From positions 1-41,216 of the IMG/VR virus record IMGVR_UViG_3300046747_000434: DNA of 41,216 bases; one strand, written 5' to 3'. Positions 871-41,216 of this stretch are shown one piece after another. The stretch's first letter is position 1; each line of letters begins with the position of its first letter. Under the pieces are notes generated by a model. The model saw nothing but the letters and a program-made list of their open reading frames with translations. It ran no database searches and was not told the DNA's origin. This DNA is from a virus. The position numbers and the translations under genes are program-made.

Positions 871-1667
871 TTGCACGCCTCCATCAGCTCGATCAGCTTG
901 TCGGCCATGCGCGCGTGGTGCCTCCTGGCAGCAGCTCCAGCAGCGTCAGCAGCAGCGTCAGCAGCGCGAGCAGCGCGAGCAGCGCGAGCAGCTCCAGCAG
1001 CGTAATCAGCAGCGGAAGCAGCGTCAGCAGCAGCGTAAGCAGCAGCGTAAGCAGCGGAAGCAGCAGCGTAAGCAGCAGCGCGAGCAGCTCCAGCAGCGCG
1101 AGCAGCTCCAGCAGCGTAAGCAGCAGCGGAAGCAGCGCGAGAAGCAGCGCACCACTCAGTTGCGCTCGGCTCGTCTCCCGCAATGCGCCGCTCGAACAGC
1201 GCCACCACGGTAGCGATTGCGGCCTTAACTGCATCGTCAGCATGCCTGACCACGCCATGCCTCGGATCGCTGAGCATCCACACGGCGAGGCGCGGCCACA
1301 CCAGCGACAGGTCAGCGCCCGTCGTGATAGATTTCGCGAAGCGCTGCGGCCACAGCTTCGCGCGCGCCTTGGATTGCCTCTCGAACAAGCGATCCTGCAG
1401 GTATGCCAGCTCAATCGGTATGCCGAGACGCTCTGCTAGCGCCGTGTGGTTCGAATATGCGCCGATGTCCCGCTCGCGCAGGTCGACGTGATCGATGCGC
1501 GCAATGCTCCGCAGGCCGCATGCGACCGCGCAGCCGCGCCATTCCTTGCCCTCGCCGTGTCCGTACGAGCCTTGGCTGATGGCGTCCATGCGCGCGTGCC
1601 ACGCCAGTTCACGCAGGAAGCGCGCGCGGAATGCCTTATCACCGTTGTATCCGACTAGATTAGTCAT
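867..1667 (-). CDS. Ala-rich periodic-repeat protein, divergent paralog P1 (266 aa)
   Basis: C-terminal AAYAAGAARAAGAARAAAYAAASAAYAAAYAAADAASAADYAAGAARAARAARAADAA repeat. The N-terminal domain differs from the other three copies. Confidence 0.8.
   Translation of the reverse strand: MTNLVGYNGDKAFRARFLRELAWHARMDAISQGSYGHGEGKEWRGCAVACGLRSIARIDHVDLRERDIGAYSNHTALAERLGIPIELAYLQDRLFERQSKARAKLWPQRFAKSITTGADLSLVWPRLAVWMLSDPRHGVVRHADDAVKAAIATVVALFERRIAGDEPSATEWCAASRAASAAAYAAGAARAAGAARAAAYAAASAAYAAAYAAADAASAADYAAGAARAARAARAADAAADAAGAAARRHHARMADKLIELMEACK
921..1152 (-). repeat. GCT-rich (plus-strand GCAGC) coding microsatellite-like array inside P1
   Basis: Runs of gcagcagcgtaagcagc / gcgagcagc units. 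Several reading frames stay open across it (see the overlapping track ORFs 764..1213, 893..1414 and 915..1439). Confidence 0.85.
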
Positions 1668-4433: not shown

Positions 4434-4895
4434 TCAAGCAAAACGGTATCTCCTATGCTTGACGATGTCCTGCATGCGGGAGAGAGATGTTCCGTACTCC
4501 TTGGCCAGTCCTTTGGTTGACCTGCCCGCGGCGTGCTTGTCGCGCATCTCCCTGATTTGCTCGTCAGACCAGCGCCGTGAGGACTGTCTCCCCGCGGTGC
4601 ACATGTCGCGCGTGTTGTCTTCATGCGTCCCGGCGTATAGGTGCTTGGGATTGCAGCAGGCCGGGTTGTGGCAGGTGTGGAGCGCCCATAGCCCGTTGAG
4701 AGCTACGCCACCGAGCCATTCGATGGCGAACACGGGGGCGGTTCTCACGTAGCCCTGACGGCTCCAACTGAACGTCCCGCGCCCGTTCTTGAGTGCTGAC
4801 CCAGCTGTCCATGGCCAGCACTCGTCGGGACCGAGCACGGATATCTTGGACAGAAACCGCATGTAGTCTTTTGCGCTTGGTGTAGGTGAATCCAT
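4434..4895 (-). CDS. HNH endonuclease with a C-terminal HTH-like tail
   Basis: ALHTCHNPACCNPKHLYAGTHEDNTRDM is an HNH_3-type motif. The MDSPTPS start was chosen inside ORF 4434..4931. Confidence 0.85.
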   Translation of the reverse strand: MDSPTPSAKDYMRFLSKISVLGPDECWPWTAGSALKNGRGTFSWSRQGYVRTAPVFAIEWLGGVALNGLWALHTCHNPACCNPKHLYAGTHEDNTRDMCTAGRQSSRRWSDEQIREMRDKHAAGRSTKGLAKEYGTSLSRMQDIVKHRRYRFA

Positions 4896-4991
4896 ATAGC
4901 AAGCATATAGGGTACACCATATTGATGCCATTAGTTTTCAGCACCCAAATCTCGAGCATCTCTGCTACGCTACCTCTCGGAGGTGGGCGTT

Positions 4992-28657: not shown

Positions 28658-29505
28658 GCCACCCCCGGGTACAGCCTGTCCAGCAATTCCACGCCCGGGC
28701 AGGCCATGTCGCGCAGTACCTGTAGGCACAGGTTAGCGCTCAGGACGAGGTACCGCTCACCAGCAGCGTAAGCAGCAGCGTCAGCAGCGCGAGCAGCGCG
28801 AGCAGCGCGAGCAGCGGAAGCAGCAGCGTAAGCAGCGCGAGCAGCAGCGTTAGCAGCAGCGTAAGCAGCAGCGTAAGCAGCAGCGTCAGCAGCGTTAGCA
28901 GCAGCGTAAGCAGCAGCGTAAGCAGCGCGAGCAGCAGCGTTAGCAGCAGCGTAAGCAGCAGCGTAAGCAGCAGCGTCAGCAGCGTTAGCAGCAGCGTAAG
29001 CAGCAGCGTAAGCAGCGGAAGCAGCAGCGTCAGCAGCGGGAGAAGCAGCGGAAGCAGCAGCGTAAGCAGCGGAAGCAGCGTCCTTGGTCCCCTCTTTTTC
29101 GCAGCGGTCGGCGGCCTCGCGGCAACGTTGGTGCACTGGCGAGGTGGCAGTGAACAGTTCGCGGAACAGCGTGGGCAGCAGCACACGGATGTGCGCCTCG
29201 GCGATACGGCGCGCGAAGTCCAACCCGTCGAGCGTATCGCTACCGAGCTGGGCGACTGCGATGTCGCGAAGCCCACGCGCGCGGGACTCGTCGCTCTCCC
29301 AGCGCTGCGAGTCGTTCAGCGTGATCTTGAAGCCGCGCACAACGGGGTTGACGCAGGCAGGGTCGTCGCCGAAGGGGAGGCCCATGGCTTGGCTGATGGC
29401 GGCCTCCACGCACATCTTGCCGTCCGGCTTACCCGCGCCAGTGCAAAGACCGCGCGCAAGTATCGCTTCGAATACAGGTTGGTTGAATGCTGATAGATCG
29501 GTCAT
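28654..29505 (-). CDS. Ala-rich periodic-repeat protein, paralog P2 (283 aa)
   Basis: N-terminal domain MTDLSAFNQPVFEAILARGLCTG..., a long AAYAAAYAAANAADAAAY... repeat, and a conserved ERYLVLSANLCLQVLRDMACPGVELLDRLYPG tail. Confidence 0.85.
   Translation of the reverse strand: MTDLSAFNQPVFEAILARGLCTGAGKPDGKMCVEAAISQAMGLPFGDDPACVNPVVRGFKITLNDSQRWESDESRARGLRDIAVAQLGSDTLDGLDFARRIAEAHIRVLLPTLFRELFTATSPVHQRCREAADRCEKEGTKDAASAAYAAASAASPAADAAASAAYAAAYAAANAADAAAYAAAYAAANAAARAAYAAAYAAANAADAAAYAAAYAAANAAARAAYAAASAARAARAARAADAAAYAAGERYLVLSANLCLQVLRDMACPGVELLDRLYPGVA
28756..29083 (-). repeat. GCT-codon repeat array in P2, including a perfect 90-bp tandem duplication (28831-28920 = 28921-29010)
   Basis: The block agcagcgcgagcagcagcgttagc...gcagcgta recurs exactly 90 nt later. 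Several reading frames are open across the array. Confidence 0.85.
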
Positions 29506-30431
29506 GTCAGGTTGCCTTTCGTGAGCTTCTGAATCTCGTGTCGCACCACCAAGTAGCTAGCCCATAAGCGCTGAGCTACCGGACGCTGGTGAAAGTCCGG
29601 CTTCGCGTACATCACCTCGCGCAGGAAGCCAGGTGGCACCTCGGTGTACTTCTTGCCGGGGTACCGCTTCGCATCGGCGGCGAAAACTGGCGGATCCATC
29701 GGGGGCGCGTGCAGTCCGTGCTCGTCTGCTGCGCCGGAGGCGATGCTGAACGCGTTGAATATCTCATCGCACAGGTCGTTGTGGCGGCCCACCCAGTCGA
29801 CGTTAGTAGTCGCAGAAGATTCCGTGCGGGACGTCGTCCCAGTCACCGAGATCGCAGCTGGGGCACCGACCGTTGGCGCGGAGCCTGGTGCCGTGTTCTG
29901 GGCATTCTTCTGGGGCTGCTCTTTTGGGCGCTCCTCGTGGTCACCTCCACCGGCCACGTCGTCAAGCGACCGCGCAACCTTGCCCGGGCGTTTCGCGGCA
30001 TGCTCGAACCGCTCGTTAGAGTCGTGCTCAGGGTCCTCTGTGACGCCACCAGCGAGCTGGCAGACGCGCAGCATGGCCGTGCGGTCGAGCGCTGTGCTCG
30101 CGATGTATGCGGCCTTGTCGCCAGCGTGAGTTGTCGCCGCGAAGGCGTACTCACGAATCTCACCGCTCTCGTGGATCAGCTCGAACACTCCGCGCCACAA
30201 CCAGACAATACTCGCTCCAGCCTTGTCGGCAACAGGCTGCGCGCACACGAAGATCACATCTTTTTGCACGAGGGTGAGACCGTACGTGAGTAGCGCCTCC
30301 CGTGCGCCGCTTGTCAGCACGTGTTCGTGGCCGACGTATGGGTAGTTCTGATGCGCGTTTTTGCCCGCCTTGTTGACGACAACCGCGCACGCGATGCGCG
30401 CCAGTTTCAGCGCTTTCCCAAGTTCGCTCAC
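29502..30431 (-). CDS. erf: Erf-like single-strand annealing protein
   Basis: N-terminal KNAHQNYPYVGHEHVLTSGAREALLTYGLTLVQ and DKAAYIASTALDRTAML fit the ERF pattern. A disordered C-terminal half. GTGA coupling to the exonuclease gene. Confidence 0.7.
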   Translation of the reverse strand: MSELGKALKLARIACAVVVNKAGKNAHQNYPYVGHEHVLTSGAREALLTYGLTLVQKDVIFVCAQPVADKAGASIVWLWRGVFELIHESGEIREYAFAATTHAGDKAAYIASTALDRTAMLRVCQLAGGVTEDPEHDSNERFEHAAKRPGKVARSLDDVAGGGDHEERPKEQPQKNAQNTAPGSAPTVGAPAAISVTGTTSRTESSATTNVDWVGRHNDLCDEIFNAFSIASGAADEHGLHAPPMDPPVFAADAKRYPGKKYTEVPPGFLREVMYAKPDFHQRPVAQRLWASYLVVRHEIQKLTKGNLT

Positions 30432-31144
30432 AGCTCACCTCTCTTTAGCCTGTCGACCTCAGCCATGAAAATAGGCACTTCAGCGCGAATCCTCGCGATC
30501 ACGGCTTCGTGCCTACGAATCGGGTACGCGCGCAGCTTGAAGCACGGTGCGCAGAGATGCAGCACGAGTAGCGCGCCCCACTCCGCGCCGGTCACCGCCA
30601 GCTCAGTCTGTACCTGCAGCTGGTAGTCCAGCGGCGGCCCCTTAGACCACACAGCAGTGGACTCCGCGCCGCTTTTCTGCGGCTTGCAGTCCTCGGTAGC
30701 CTGGCACGTGGTGGCCTTGATCTGCACGATTGAGAGGCCGAGGTCATCCGCGTTCACGTCGACGCTCTCGACGTGCGGAACGTACAGCTCAAACTTTCCT
30801 CCGGCCTTGCGCCAGCGCACACGCAGATCACTTTGTGGAGTGAGCAACAGGTAGTCCGGAGTCGCACCGAGCAGAGGACACGACGCGTCCACGCGCAGCA
30901 CGCCAGCCTCGTGCAGCTTCCACCCGAACTTGCGCATCGCCATACGTGCAATCGCCGGCTCGAGATCGAGGCCGATGTCGGTCTGCTCGCTACCGGCCCA
31001 CTCCTCGGCGAGTCCGGCCTTCTCCATGCGCAATTGCTCGCGCGTCTTGTACTTCGACTCGCCAAGTATAGCGGCAACGTCGCTGGCAGTTACGAGCAGC
31101 CGGCGCGCAGCGAGCCACGCTGCGCGGTCTGAGCTATGTGTCAT
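30428..31144 (-). CDS. YqaJ-type (lambda Exo-like) recombination exonuclease
   Basis: RRLLVTASDVAAILGESKYKTREQLRMEKAG is a YqaJ N-terminal motif. Adjacent to the annealase gene. Confidence 0.8.
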   Translation of the reverse strand: MTHSSDRAAWLAARRLLVTASDVAAILGESKYKTREQLRMEKAGLAEEWAGSEQTDIGLDLEPAIARMAMRKFGWKLHEAGVLRVDASCPLLGATPDYLLLTPQSDLRVRWRKAGGKFELYVPHVESVDVNADDLGLSIVQIKATTCQATEDCKPQKSGAESTAVWSKGPPLDYQLQVQTELAVTGAEWGALLVLHLCAPCFKLRAYPIRRHEAVIARIRAEVPIFMAEVDRLKRGEL

Positions 31145-31284
31145 CCGGCCCGCCTCCTGACATTGAGAACGAAATGGTTAGCTACGCCAAGAGCGACCAT
31201 CAGCGCGCAACCAAATGCAGATCCATAAACAGCCTGCGATACGGCTGCGCCAAGCCAACACGCACCGCTTAGCCACAGCAGCAT
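31141..31284 (-). CDS. Small hydrophobic (membrane) protein, 47 aa
   Basis: MLLWLSGACWLGAAVSQAVYGSAFGCALMVALGVANHFVL. TGATG overlap with the P3 stop and ATGA overlap with the exonuclease start. Confidence 0.5.
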   Translation of the reverse strand: MLLWLSGACWLGAAVSQAVYGSAFGCALMVALGVANHFVLNVRRRAG

Positions 31285-32018
31285 CACGCTGCCCCCGGGT
31301 ACAGGCGATCCAGCAGCTCCACACCTGGGCAGGCCATGTCGCGCAGTACCTGTAGGCACAGGTTAGCGCTCAGCACAAGGTAACGCTCACCAGCAGCTCC
31401 AGCAGCGCGAGCAGCTCCAGCAGCGTAAGCAGCAGCGGAAGCAGCGTAAGCAGCGTAAGCAGCAGCAGCGCGATCAGCGGAAGCAGCGTAAGCAGCGTAA
31501 GCAGCAGCAGCGCGATCAGCGTAAGCAGCGCGAGAAGCGTAAGCAGCAGCGTGAGCAGCGTCAGCAGCGCAAGCAGCAGCGTGATAAGCAGCGTGCTTGC
31601 TCCCCTCTTTTTCGCAGCGGTCGGCGGCTTCGCGGCAGCGTTGGTGCGCTGGTGACGCGTCGGTGAACAGCTCGCGGAACAGCGTGGGCAGCAGCACACG
31701 GATGTGCGCCTCGGCGATACGGCGCGCGAAGTCCACACCATCGAGCGTGTCGCTACCGAGTTGCGCGACTGCGATGTCGCGAAGCCCACGCGCGCGGGAA
31801 TCGTCGCTCTCCCAGCGTGGAGAGTCGTTGAGCGTGATCTTGAATCTGCGCACAGCAGGGTGGACACACGCGGGGTCATCGCCGAACGGGAGGCCCATCG
31901 CCTGCGAGATAGCGGCCTCCACGCACATCTTGCCATCGGCGCGTCCCACGCCAGTGCACAACCCACGCGCAAGTATCGCCTCGAATACAGGTTGGTTGAA
32001 TGCTGATAGATCGGTCAT
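31284..32018 (-). CDS. Ala-rich periodic-repeat protein, paralog P3 (244 aa)
   Basis: The ATG at 32018 follows a GGAG RBS and overlaps the upstream stop (ATGA). Same N- and C-terminal modules as P2 and P4. Confidence 0.85.
   Translation of the reverse strand: MTDLSAFNQPVFEAILARGLCTGVGRADGKMCVEAAISQAMGLPFGDDPACVHPAVRRFKITLNDSPRWESDDSRARGLRDIAVAQLGSDTLDGVDFARRIAEAHIRVLLPTLFRELFTDASPAHQRCREAADRCEKEGSKHAAYHAAACAADAAHAAAYASRAAYADRAAAAYAAYAASADRAAAAYAAYAASAAAYAAGAARAAGAAGERYLVLSANLCLQVLRDMACPGVELLDRLYPGAA
31391..31592 (-). repeat. GCT-codon repeat array in P3
   Basis: Encodes AAYHAAACAADAAHAAAYASRAAYADRAAAAYAAYAASADRAAAAYAAYAASAAAYAAGAARAAGAAG. Contains an internal duplication of the DRAAAAYAAYAAS unit. 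Confidence 0.8.
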
Positions 32019-35954: not shown

Positions 35955-36937
35955 CCGAACCGCGCGTAACTGTCGTGCAGGAACAGCGCATTATCGGCTG
36001 GCCGGACGAGCCCGGAGCCGAGCCGAGACCACAGGATCGCGCTTACGTGCTGCCGATCTCCAAGGCACTCGCGCGCAGCTACACGACAGACGCTCATTTC
36101 GCGCAGTACGTGACGCCCAACGCACGACGCCTCAAGACAGCAGCAGCATCGCTCCTACGCGTGCGGCTTGGCGTGATCGTGCTCGATCTCGACTGCGCTG
36201 AGGCACACGCGAGCGGTGATCCCGCCCCGGAGTCGTGGCGCATCGACGTGCGTCGCCAGGCAACGCAGCTACTTCGCGCCCACGGCCGTGGCTACTACTA
36301 CGAGACGCGGGGCGGGGCGCGCATCGTGTACCTGCAGCCTGCGCCCTACAAGATCAGCTCAGCCGCTGATGCGCTCCAGTGGCGCCAGGACTACGCCGTC
36401 ACGTGCGCATGGATGCGCCGCAGCTTCGGGCTCGAGGTGGACGTCGCGTGCTCCGACTGGCCTCGGTTGTTCCGCCTGCCACGCGCCACCCGGAAAGGCA
36501 GCACGGTGTCTGAGGACTACCTCACGCTTGGCCGCTCCGACAACATCGGCGCGCTGAGCTTCACGCCAGAGACGTGCGATCTCGACCTGGCCCGTGAGCT
36601 ACTCCCCCGTGCATTCGACGAGCGGCGCAGCGCATTCGCGCCCGAGTTGGCAGATGGCAACGGCGTGCTGTTCCATGCGTTGCGCGCGCGCGGCGCGATA
36701 CTGCGGCCGATGGGCGGCAAGGCGTACGTGATCCGCTGTCCCAACGAAGCGCAGCACAGCGCAGGCGGGAAGGCGAAAGACCGCGCAACCGTGCTGTATC
36801 TGCCAAGTACGGGGCAGTCGATAGGCCTGATATGGTGCCTCCACGCGCACTGCGGCAATACGAAACCAGTTGACTGGCTGAAGCATTTCAGCCGTGATGA
36901 GCTGAACGCGGCTGATGCTGCGATGAAGGGGAAGTGA
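35951..36937 (+). CDS. Primase/primase-polymerase-like replication protein with a C-terminal zinc-binding motif
   Basis: VIVLDLDC acidic motif, ETRGGARIVY and FRLPRATR, plus C-terminal CPNEAQHS...CLHAHCG, as seen in phage/plasmid primases. Confidence 0.5.
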   Translation: MTEPRVTVVQEQRIIGWPDEPGAEPRPQDRAYVLPISKALARSYTTDAHFAQYVTPNARRLKTAAASLLRVRLGVIVLDLDCAEAHASGDPAPESWRIDVRRQATQLLRAHGRGYYYETRGGARIVYLQPAPYKISSAADALQWRQDYAVTCAWMRRSFGLEVDVACSDWPRLFRLPRATRKGSTVSEDYLTLGRSDNIGALSFTPETCDLDLARELLPRAFDERRSAFAPELADGNGVLFHALRARGAILRPMGGKAYVIRCPNEAQHSAGGKAKDRATVLYLPSTGQSIGLIWCLHAHCGNTKPVDWLKHFSRDELNAADAAMKGK

Positions 36938-37449
36938 TGCCGAAACCGATACTCGTGTTGCTACAGGGTGAGATGATGCCGATCAAGCACGCTGCCGACA
37001 AGCTGGGTGTGGCGCAAATCACTGTGAAGCGCCGCCACCTGCGTGGTGAGCCGGTGGACATGCCGCTCTATCACTCCGGACGTGGGCGCCGTGGTGGCGT
37101 CAAACACGGTCCGGCCGACTTCGACATTGACGCTGAATGGGCTGACGAGTGCGTTGCCGAATCCGTGCGCCTGCATCCCGACGGCATGACGCTGCACGAG
37201 GTTGGCGTGTTGGTCGGACTGAGTCGCGAGCGCATCCGGCAGATCGAGGAGAGCGCGCTGCGCAAGATCCGCCTGCTCGGGCTGAGCGAACGAGAGGTGA
37301 AGCGCGCGCTGTTCGCCGACCTGCAAGTCGCGCACGAGTCGTTTGACGAACGCCACCCACCGGGTCACTGGGGCGTTGTTGCGATCGCTCCGCATTGCCG
37401 TCTTCAGCGCCCTAGCGCTAGGCCATCCGGTTTGCTGGTGACGACGTGA
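36937..37449 (+). CDS. Sigma-70 region-4-like HTH protein
   Basis: MTLHEVGVLVGLSRERIRQIEESALRKIR is a canonical sigma region 4.2 motif. No region 2 was recognised. Confidence 0.6.
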   Translation: MPKPILVLLQGEMMPIKHAADKLGVAQITVKRRHLRGEPVDMPLYHSGRGRRGGVKHGPADFDIDAEWADECVAESVRLHPDGMTLHEVGVLVGLSRERIRQIEESALRKIRLLGLSEREVKRALFADLQVAHESFDERHPPGHWGVVAIAPHCRLQRPSARPSGLLVTT

Positions 37450-37799
37450 AAACGCAGTTCTCGTTTCGCCTAGAAGGTCCACCCGTCAGCAAAGCGCGCC
37501 CTCGCGTCACGCTACGAGGCACGTACACGCCAGCCAAGACGCGCACAGGGGAGAAGGCGCTCAAGCTTGTGGCGCAGTCGCGGCGCCCCGCTGACTGGCC
37601 GATGGACGAGCGCTACATGCTTACGATCATCGTTGGCGTGGACAACAACAGGCGCGCCGACTGCGATAATTTCGCGAAGTTGATCCTGGACGCTCTGATT
37701 GGCGTTGCATACCGCGACGACAGTCAGGTCGACGTGCTTTGGATTCAGCGCAAGCGCGGCGTCGAGCCGTTCACCAGTGCAATCGTGGAGGTCATGTAA
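37446..37799 (+). CDS. rusA: RusA-family Holliday junction resolvase
   Basis: GPPVSKARPR...DCDNFAKLILDALIGVAYRDDSQV is the RusA signature. GTGA overlap. Confidence 0.85.
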   Translation: MKTQFSFRLEGPPVSKARPRVTLRGTYTPAKTRTGEKALKLVAQSRRPADWPMDERYMLTIIVGVDNNRRADCDNFAKLILDALIGVAYRDDSQVDVLWIQRKRGVEPFTSAIVEVM

Positions 37800-40127: not shown

Positions 40128-40462
40128 TCCTCACTGAGGTGTAACGGTCCATCGTGGTCGGGCAAAGAAGCCGCTTCCGCGTAGTCACAAGCGACCAACT
40201 CGGCCGCTCGGGATGGTGAGTGTTGTGCCATGTATCGCTCGTGTAGTCGGCAGGCCGTCTCAGCAAGTTCGCGGCTCTCCCAGTCACACGCGCCGAGTGC
40301 ATCCCGTGCATCGATCGCGACCACGCGCGCCTGCGTGGGCATGCCGTTGAGGTACGGGGCAGCTCCGATCCACTGAGCTGACCAGCCGCCCGTGGATGTA
40401 CGCTCCACGCGATACTCTCCGGTGGTCGTCTCGGCGGTGAGCTGGATTGGTTCGAAGTGCAT
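40118..40462 (-). CDS. Hypothetical protein, 114 aa (MHFEPIQLTAETTTGEYRVERT...)
   Basis: Internal ATG of ORF 40118..40537. It overlaps the P4 stop as TGATG. Confidence 0.55.
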   Translation of the reverse strand: MHFEPIQLTAETTTGEYRVERTSTGGWSAQWIGAAPYLNGMPTQARVVAIDARDALGACDWESRELAETACRLHERYMAQHSPSRAAELVACDYAEAASLPDHDGPLHLSEEWR

Positions 40463-41214
40463 CACGTTACCCCCGGGTACAGGCGATCCAGCAGCTCCAC
40501 ACCTGGGCAGGCCATGTCGCGCAGTACCTGTAGGCACAGGTTAGCGCTCAGCACAAGGTAACGCTCACCAGCAGCTCCAGCAGCGGAAGCAGCGTCAGCA
40601 GCAGCGCGAGCAGCGGAAGCAGCAGCGTAAGCAGCGCGAGCAGCAGCGTTAGCAGCAGCGTAAGCAGCAGCGTAAGCAGCAGCGTCAGCAGCGTTAGCAG
40701 CAGCGTAAGCAGCAGCGTAAGCAGCGGAAGCAGCAGCGTCAGCAGCGGGAGAAGCAGCGGAAGCAGCAGCGTAAGCAGCGGAAGCAGCGTCCTTGGTCCC
40801 CTCTTTTTCGCAGCGGTCGGCGGCCTCGCGGCAACGTTGGTGCACTGGCGAGGTGGCAGTGAACAGTTCGCGGAACAGCGTGGGCAGCAGCACACGGATG
40901 TGCGCCTCGGCGATACGGCGCGCGAAGTCCACACCATCGAGCGTGTCGCTACCGAGTTGCGCGACTGCGATGTCGCGAAGCCCACGCGCGCGGGAATCGT
41001 CGCTCTCCCAGCGTGGAGAGTCGTTGAGCGTGATCTTGAATCTGCGCACAGCAGGGTGGACACACGCGGGGTCATCGCCGAACGGGAGGCCCATCGCCTG
41101 CGAGATAGCGGCCTCCACGCACATCTTGCCATCGGCGCGTCCCACGCCAGTGCACAACCCACGCGCAAGTATCGCCTCGAATACAGGTTGGTTGAATGCT
41201 GATAGATCGGTCAT
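40462..41214 (-). CDS. Ala-rich periodic-repeat protein, paralog P4 (250 aa); a mosaic of P3 and P2
   Basis: The N-terminal 119 aa are identical to P3. The linker and repeat are identical to P2 minus one 90-bp unit. The 3' end is identical to P3. Confidence 0.85.
   Translation of the reverse strand: MTDLSAFNQPVFEAILARGLCTGVGRADGKMCVEAAISQAMGLPFGDDPACVHPAVRRFKITLNDSPRWESDDSRARGLRDIAVAQLGSDTLDGVDFARRIAEAHIRVLLPTLFRELFTATSPVHQRCREAADRCEKEGTKDAASAAYAAASAASPAADAAASAAYAAAYAAANAADAAAYAAAYAAANAAARAAYAAASAARAAADAASAAGAAGERYLVLSANLCLQVLRDMACPGVELLDRLYPGVT
40568..40791 (-). repeat. GCT-codon repeat array in P4
   Basis: Same unit structure as the P2 array, but with a single copy of the 90-bp unit. Confidence 0.85.
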
Positions 41215-41216
41215 TT

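Follow-up and report, generated by a model that had tools for sequence, protein, structure and literature searches.

The viral sequence IMGVR_UViG_3300046747_000434 (IMG/VR; 41,216 bp), which was analysed over its full length and is referred to here as the window, contains four minus-strand genes with GCT-rich alanine repeat arrays: P1, P2, P3 and P4. The subject of this study is P4 (40462–41214, 250 residues), a mosaic paralogue of P2 (28654–29505, 283 residues), the putative donor of its middle tract, and of P3 (31284–32018, 244 residues from the ATG), the putative donor of its 5′ and 3′ tracts. P2, P3 and P4 are direct repeats in one circular 41.1-kb phage genome. Their products have a common layout, with an amino-terminal domain (N-domain) of about 140 residues, a variable Ala-X array composed of AAYAAAS-like repeats, and a conserved carboxy-terminal helix. 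P1 (867–1667, 266 residues) has an unrelated N-domain and the same kind of GCT-coded alanine array. The arrays extend approximately from 909 to 1157 in P1, 28760 to 29080 in P2, 31390 to 31590 in P3 and 40570 to 40790 in P4.

The original prediction, made by eye from the sequence, described P4 as a clean three-segment mosaic of the type P3/P2/P3, and exact matching together with the analysis of informative sites bears this out. Tract 1 (40868–41216), at the 5′ end of the gene, comprises 349 bp without any mismatch to P3 (31672–32020), so that the assignment of the region from 41214 down to about 40932 to P3 holds. Tract 2 (40600–40931, 332 bp) corresponds to P2 28801–29222 without one 90-bp unit of the array, again as had been proposed for the stretch from about 40867 through the linker and the array. 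Two exact matches define it: one of 315 bp (P4 40931 to 40617 against P2 29222 to 28908) and one of 127 bp (P4 40726 to 40600 against P2 28927 to 28801), the latter in a register shifted by 90 bp. P4 from 40931 to 40600 is therefore P2 minus exactly one 90-bp (30-codon) unit. Because P2 matches itself at a shift of 90 over 110 bp, the deletion point is ambiguous. Tract 3 (40470–40585) is 116 bp long and identical to P3 31292–31407 (P4 40585 to 40470 against P3 31407 to 31292). Two codons private to P4 and the stop/start overlap TGATG come after it. Identity with P3 had been claimed up to the stop codon and the TGATG; the 116 bp agree with this, but the final two sense codons do not, as these are GTA ACG in P4, GCA GCG in P3 and GTG GCC in P2.

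Both switch points were located correctly. The change from P3 to P2 (junction 1) falls inside a 64-bp block (40868–40931) which is the same in all three copies, the corresponding positions being 29159–29222 in P2 and 31672–31735 in P3. This block is the longest exact match between P2 and P3 and is identical even at synonymous sites, compared with a divergence of about 14% around it. It may be the trace of an earlier conversion between P2 and P3, or reflect constraint at the nucleotide level, the statistical support being borderline. The second switch (junction 2) lies inside the GCT array, in a zone of 14 nt (40586–40599, GCT GAC GCT GCT TC) that is in register with neither P2 nor P3. The similarity upstream of the start codons of P2 and P4 is likewise real. 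Both genes share gctcacgaaagg..acctga..ATG, and P4 carries an 11-nt insertion. In P4 this upstream region, with a Shine-Dalgarno-like aaagga, is found at 128–165 on the minus strand, across the circular junction. The P2-like upstream sequence with its 11-nt insertion indicates that P4 retains some features of its own.

The tracts stand out from a clearly diverged background. P2 and P3 are about 86% identical at the nucleotide level, with 0.39 synonymous substitutions per synonymous site (dS). In the N-domain block 40 of 283 sites differ between them, in the linker nine of 68, and in the C-terminal part 10 of 106. Along the alignment of the three genes, the informative sites are of P3 type in 41 of 41 cases, then of P2 type in 65 of 65, and then again of P3 type in 14 of 14. 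Outside the array, the order of labels is 40 times P3, nine times P2, 10 times P3, once P2 and twice P3. The probability of a pattern as clean as the three-block mosaic is about 6e−10, and none of 200,000 permutations had as few label switches as observed. Discrete tracts of identity with statistically supported breakpoints, in a genome with at least two paralogues on a diverged background, are expected of ectopic gene conversion, and both are found here.

P2 and P4 both contain the P2-type middle part, just as the P3-type ends occur in P3 as well as in P4. As the donor sequences still exist in P2 and P3, the transfer was non-reciprocal, and the absence of any difference within the tracts, set against a dS of 0.39, indicates very recent events. 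We consider it likely, on the evidence of the sequence comparison, that P4 is a real recombinant gene which was recently overwritten by non-reciprocal homologous recombination from resident copies, with slippage in the array in addition. Non-reciprocal exchange among resident paralogues is the most economical account of P4. Ordinary phage mosaicism could produce a similar picture if the tracts had come from co-infecting close relatives or from a prophage with P2-like and P3-like alleles. Patches of this kind are readily produced by Rad52-like phage recombinases when related genomes recombine (PMC3945230), and the family is widespread, with 1,367 clusters at 50% identity. However, neither the 349-bp nor the 332-bp tract differs from the resident copy at any base, whereas the best non-self homologue among about 5.8 billion proteins searched is 55% identical. 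A donor from outside would have to equal the resident copies, which amounts to recombination between sister genomes and is mechanistically the same as conversion from within. We thus regard import from another genome as improbable.

Conversion from resident copies would be either ectopic gene conversion or copy-choice with P3 and P2 as templates. In a first step, P3 sequence would have taken over the entire P4 locus. In a second step, a P2 patch of about 330 bp, comprising linker and array, would have been copied into P4, one end of the patch being resolved in the 64-bp common block and the other in the GCT-rich array. The arrays of P2 and P4 would have come to differ by 90 bp in a separate event, by slippage or unequal exchange of one repeat unit. 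P4 is taken as the recipient on grounds of parsimony, since two events suffice, compared with three if P4 were the donor.

The prediction that the phage encodes its own annealase and exonuclease was verified by PHROG and Pfam searches, which also revealed a RusA resolvase. An Erf-like single-strand annealing protein (29502–30431, minus strand; PHROG 155, E 4e−10) and a YqaJ/RecE-like exonuclease (30428–31144, minus strand; Pfam PF09588, E 3e−14; PHROG 434, E 1e−31) are encoded between P3 and P2. The RusA Holliday-junction resolvase is encoded on the plus strand (37446–37799; Pfam PF05866, E 3e−17). We infer that the Erf-like annealase and the YqaJ exonuclease, with RusA, are the likely catalysts, acting on replicating or concatemeric phage DNA; host RecA would be an alternative. 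A published test of recombination inside a phage genome found an Erf/Exo pair to be as efficient as lambda Red on substrates of 100% and 78% identity, and its authors report that intragenic patches of about 100 bp are often exchanged (PMC3945230). A literature search retrieved nothing specific on the family of P2 to P4 or on intragenomic conversion in phages.

The contig originates from a short-read metagenome assembly. Positions 1–127 are exactly identical to positions 41090–41216, leaving 41,089 unique bases, and this terminal overlap implies that the genome is circular or circularly permuted. We take an end overlap of 127 bp to be the expected output of the metaSPAdes pipeline of JGI at its largest k. 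The 127-mer of the overlap is also identical to P3 31894–32020. It was thus a branching vertex of the assembly graph, at which the contig was opened.

These properties bear on the alternative raised in the original prediction, that the assembler created a chimera. In this case the P4 path would have been stitched together from strain variants or misresolved repeats, and no single genome would carry the mosaic at this position. The end overlap of a short-read metagenome contig, placed at a branching k-mer common with P3, is compatible with such an error, as is the need to resolve two exact repeats (349 and 315 bp) by read pairs. In addition, one P2/P4 match is exactly 127 nt long, the array is frameshifted in one relative (L008), and 25 of about 88 public homologue contigs end inside the alanine array, a region which is hard for assemblers. 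The k-mer content of the window speaks against it. Only three stretches of the whole genome are repeated at k = 127, namely the tracts of 349 and 315 bp and a single 127-mer. The k-mers spanning junction 1 (starts 40932–40993) are unique to P4, its discriminating bases, 40932 and 40867, being 66 bp apart. The 127-mers covering the 116-bp 3′ tract, which is shorter than k, are all unique to P4 as well. A de Bruijn assembler is not able to invent k-mers, so that those of the junctions must come from reads and not from graph traversal, and recombinant molecules existed in the sample. A wrong resolution of repeats could shift junctions between copies but could not create them. Three distinct upstream and three distinct downstream flanks demand three copies. 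Alternative Eulerian circuits through the three shared segments retain both recombinant junctions and merely move them; by our reasoning, the only other path giving a single circle keeps both, spread over two copies. An assembler chimera is thereby weakened as an explanation, and we rate it as unlikely, though with some residual weight.

A separate assembly was available for part of the window. The Logan contig L091 (SRR26077926_1275177; k = 31; 1,846 bp) is exactly identical to positions 29476–31321. It ends precisely at the first 31-mers common to the paralogues, as predicted from the identity between the copies. L091 agrees with the repeat structure and is a separate assembly, although it does not provide evidence independent of the reads. 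Exact products of the genes on either side of P4 are not on record among the Logan contigs.

Several points nevertheless weigh against recent conversion of a single P4 locus as set out above. Both junctions presumably lie on the same DNA molecule, but this linkage depends on the resolution of the 315-bp and 349-bp exact repeats from read pairs by metaSPAdes. In a metagenomic sample, and with an array as hypervariable as in this family, the assembler may have passed through strain variants in the array part of P4, which includes junction 2 and the 90-bp unit. The shorter exact P2/P4 match (28801–28927 and 40600–40726) is 127 nt long, equal to the presumed k, and is the sole repeat in the genome that consists of a single k-mer; its length is probably a coincidence, as an internal P2 repeat of 110 nt and a further 17 nt add up to it. 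A close relative that would allow comparison of the mosaic across genomes was absent from every collection searched. Finally, the direction of the transfer and the enzymes involved were deduced, the former by parsimony and the latter from the gene content of the phage.

The arrays themselves have a conspicuous codon usage. Of the 224 array alanines in the window, 222 are encoded by GCT, which is a minority codon in a genome preferring GCG and GCC. In relatives, each array also has one dominant alanine codon (GCT, GCC or GCG) which differs between lineages. Arrays dominated by a single codon point to continual local expansion and contraction, that is to rapid turnover. Tandem repeats within the open reading frame (ORF) were detected by Tandem Repeats Finder, and their length differs in frame by whole units. 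Comparison of near-identical phages from different samples points in the same direction, as these differ almost only in the array, and instability of the array is, to judge from these comparisons, a trait of the family. Between contigs L002 and L008, 15 of the 17 differences over 11.8 kb fall in the array (L002 10496–10680), with frameshifting indels in L008. Clean in-frame indels of the array were found between L065 and L071 (32 codons) and between L084 and L089 (26 codons), the flanks being 99.5–100% identical. The 25 homologue contigs that end in the gene do so 0–275 bp past the N-domain, so that the array is a hot spot of assembly breaks (L005, L014, L020, L022, L023, L026, L027, L032, L034, L035, L037–L039, L043, L046, L048, L052, L056, L058, L060, L075, L078, L081, L083 and L088).

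Beyond the array, no relation of P1 to P2, P3 and P4 was detected by BLASTP or hhalign. A hypothetical protein of Xanthomonas phage KPhi1 that likewise ends in an alanine array matches the P1 N-domain with about 28% identity. The P1 array has exact in-frame stretches of 44–55 nt in common with the arrays of P2, P3 and P4 (window 1026–1137 against 28771–29030, 31392–31446 and 40696–40739). None of 300 codon shuffles reached the observed match length, although the shuffle ignores motif-level structure. This sharing is suggestive, though only that, of exchange at the level of the array or of a common origin within the genome.

P2, P3 and P4 are complete genes, each with an ATG and a Shine-Dalgarno-like motif. 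The ratio of non-synonymous to synonymous substitutions (omega) for P2 compared with P3 is 0.15 and 0.05, so that P2 and P3 are under purifying selection. Between 28654 and 32018, five genes are linked by overlaps of stop and start codons: P3, a hydrophobic ORF of 47 residues, the exonuclease gene, the annealase gene and P2. In this chain, the stop codon of P3 overlaps the ATG of the 47-residue ORF (31141–31284) in a TGATG; the YqaJ exonuclease and the Erf-like annealase follow, and the ATG of P2 overlaps the stop codon of the annealase gene (ATGA). The recombination module is thus located between direct repeats of the paralogue, and a crossover between P3 and P2 would delete it. P1 and P4 belong to another run of minus-strand genes, with about 740 bp between them. 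No second N-domain was found within 10 kb in any of 88 related loci, which suggests that the triplication is special to this phage. No conserved linkage of the family to exo/erf genes was found.

The original prediction had compared P4 with cassette-like conversion in antigenic variation. In a programmed system of this type, P4 would be the expression site, P2, P3 and P1 would serve as donor cassettes, and copying at high frequency would vary a host-interacting protein. The segmental mosaic, the hypervariability of the array across the family, the exact stretches shared by the P1 array despite its unrelated N-domain and the recombination genes between P3 and P2 would all fit. This framing is, however, not supported by the organization of the genes. 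Every copy is full length, has its Shine-Dalgarno-like motif and ATG, and is translationally coupled to its neighbours; intact ORFs and purifying selection imply that the copies are not silent donors. No silent, truncated or promoterless donor cassettes exist among P2 to P4, and the window contains no dedicated initiating cis element. A G-quadruplex (G4) motif, (G3+N1−7)x4, was not found on either strand, and no reverse transcriptase was detected among 34 distinct ORFs scanned against Pfam, a set that comprised only part of the small ORFs. A nearby second copy is no feature of the family, multi-copy donors being missing within 10 kb in all 88 related loci, and only one mosaic state was observed. 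A programmed system is therefore highly improbable in our view. Mechanisms like that at pilE and those of diversity-generating retroelements (DGRs) were rejected, as neither a G4 motif nor, among the ORFs scanned, a reverse transcriptase was found.

A more speculative proposal, to which we attach only a small probability, is that the Ala-X array proteins are a phage diversification module which rapidly varies a surface for host interaction or counter-defence in the absence of a reverse transcriptase. On the alanine scaffold of the predicted helical bundle, Tyr, Asp, Asn, Ser and Arg residues could be displayed as a stripe. The array could be remodelled continually by slippage, and exchange among the three paralogues, via the phage Erf, exonuclease and RusA, could add to this. 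Such exchange may reach even the P1 array despite its unrelated N-domain.

The family to which these proteins belong is large and devoid of annotation. The 1,367 clusters mentioned above were obtained with the N-domain alone, which has 251 relatives in IMG/VR. Its invariant residues (N-domain of P4, window 40795–41214) include C32, E34, D47, K60, N64, D65, W69, R75 and C135. None of 80 aligned family members matches a Pfam entry, and searches of NCBIfam, PADLOC and the PDB sequences did not give any assignment for the P4 family. PHROG 3416, a group of unknown function, is hit by P1 (E 2.9e−10), P4 (E 3.5e−4) and P3 (E 2e−3) and not by P2; these alignments extend over the alanine array only. 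An AlphaFold2 model of P4 based on 80 sequences is all-helical and of high confidence, with a predicted local distance difference test score (pLDDT) of 92.8 and a predicted template modelling score (pTM) of 0.90. A Foldseek comparison of the model with the PDB returned no structural neighbour (best E 0.8, template modelling score below 0.3), and that with BFVD returned matches only to uncharacterized homologues.

According to Pfam and PHROG, the phage encodes a large terminase (TerL), a beta-helix tail protein, a helicase, a Dam methylase and a sigma-70 region-4 protein in addition to RusA, the YqaJ exonuclease and the Erf-like annealase. The positions of RusA, the sigma-70 region-4 protein and an HNH/His-Me endonuclease are 37446–37799, 36934–37449 and 4434–4931, respectively. 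No integrase was found among the ORFs scanned. No isolated phage is closely related to it, and only distant relatives were found elsewhere. Megablast against INPHARED gave no match, tblastn retrieved only Caulobacter phage Cr30 (45%), relatives of TerL are at most 26% identical, and scans of IMG/VR, JGI metagenomes and GTDB with P4 peptides gave distant matches only.

If confirmed by reads, P4 would be a clean natural case of very recent intragenomic conversion between dispersed paralogues in a small phage genome. Small phage genomes are generally said to lack internal repeats, and the phage described here carries its own annealase, exonuclease and resolvase. The case also draws attention to a large family of 1,367 clusters with no assignment in Pfam, NCBIfam or PADLOC, no PHROG function and no neighbour in the PDB, in which the array is hypervariable among near-identical phages and a frequent cause of breaks in short-read assemblies. 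Homologous recombination and repeat slippage are well-known processes; P4 is an example of them and a lead, not a new mechanism.

Among known systems, ectopic conversion of bacterial paralogues such as the rRNA operons and tufA/tufB also involves non-reciprocal copying of tracts within one genome, and likewise leaves tracts of perfect identity in a diverged background with ends in shared blocks of identity. Unlike these, P4 resides in a 41-kb phage, probably with phage-encoded recombination functions, and belongs to an uncharacterized gene family. Dispersed repeats are unusual in phage genomes (PMC3945230). The mosaicism generated by Rad52-like annealases (Red-beta, RecT, Erf; De Paepe et al., 2014, PMC3945230) resembles the P4 case in several respects: an Erf-type annealase and an exonuclease are present, the substrates are 78–88% identical, patches of at least about 100 bp lie inside genes, and the junctions are located in short stretches of identity. 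There, however, exchange takes place between a phage and prophages or other phages, whereas both donors of P4 are resident paralogues and the role of Erf is inferred.

Conversion from paralogues also produces segmental mosaics in pilE/pilS of Neisseria, vlsE/vls of Borrelia and msp2 of Anaplasma. These systems have one expression site with silent truncated donors, dedicated cis elements (a G4 at pilE) and unidirectional switching at high frequency. P2, P3 and P4, in contrast, are all intact, under selection and apparently expressed, and the search for a G4 motif was negative. In phage DGRs (Mtd of Bordetella phage BPP-1), the variable part is also rewritten from a second copy in the same genome. 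Unlike BPP-1, the P4 phage has no reverse transcriptase beside a template repeat among the ORFs scanned and no pair of template and variable repeats, and adenine-specific differences do not occur, the P4 tracts being 100% identical to their donors. With coding variable-number tandem repeat (VNTR) or contingency proteins, P2 to P4 share in-frame length changes by whole units (90 bp between P2 and P4) and an array homogenized to one alanine codon. In contrast to these, P2 to P4 are not known to be connected with phase variation or with a protein at the surface, and the units are imperfect GCT-based blocks of 9–45 nt encoding a predicted alanine-rich helical bundle. Overall, the P4 case resembles concerted evolution through gene conversion, with instability of a tandem repeat in addition, and P4 is a new example of this known process in an unannotated family.

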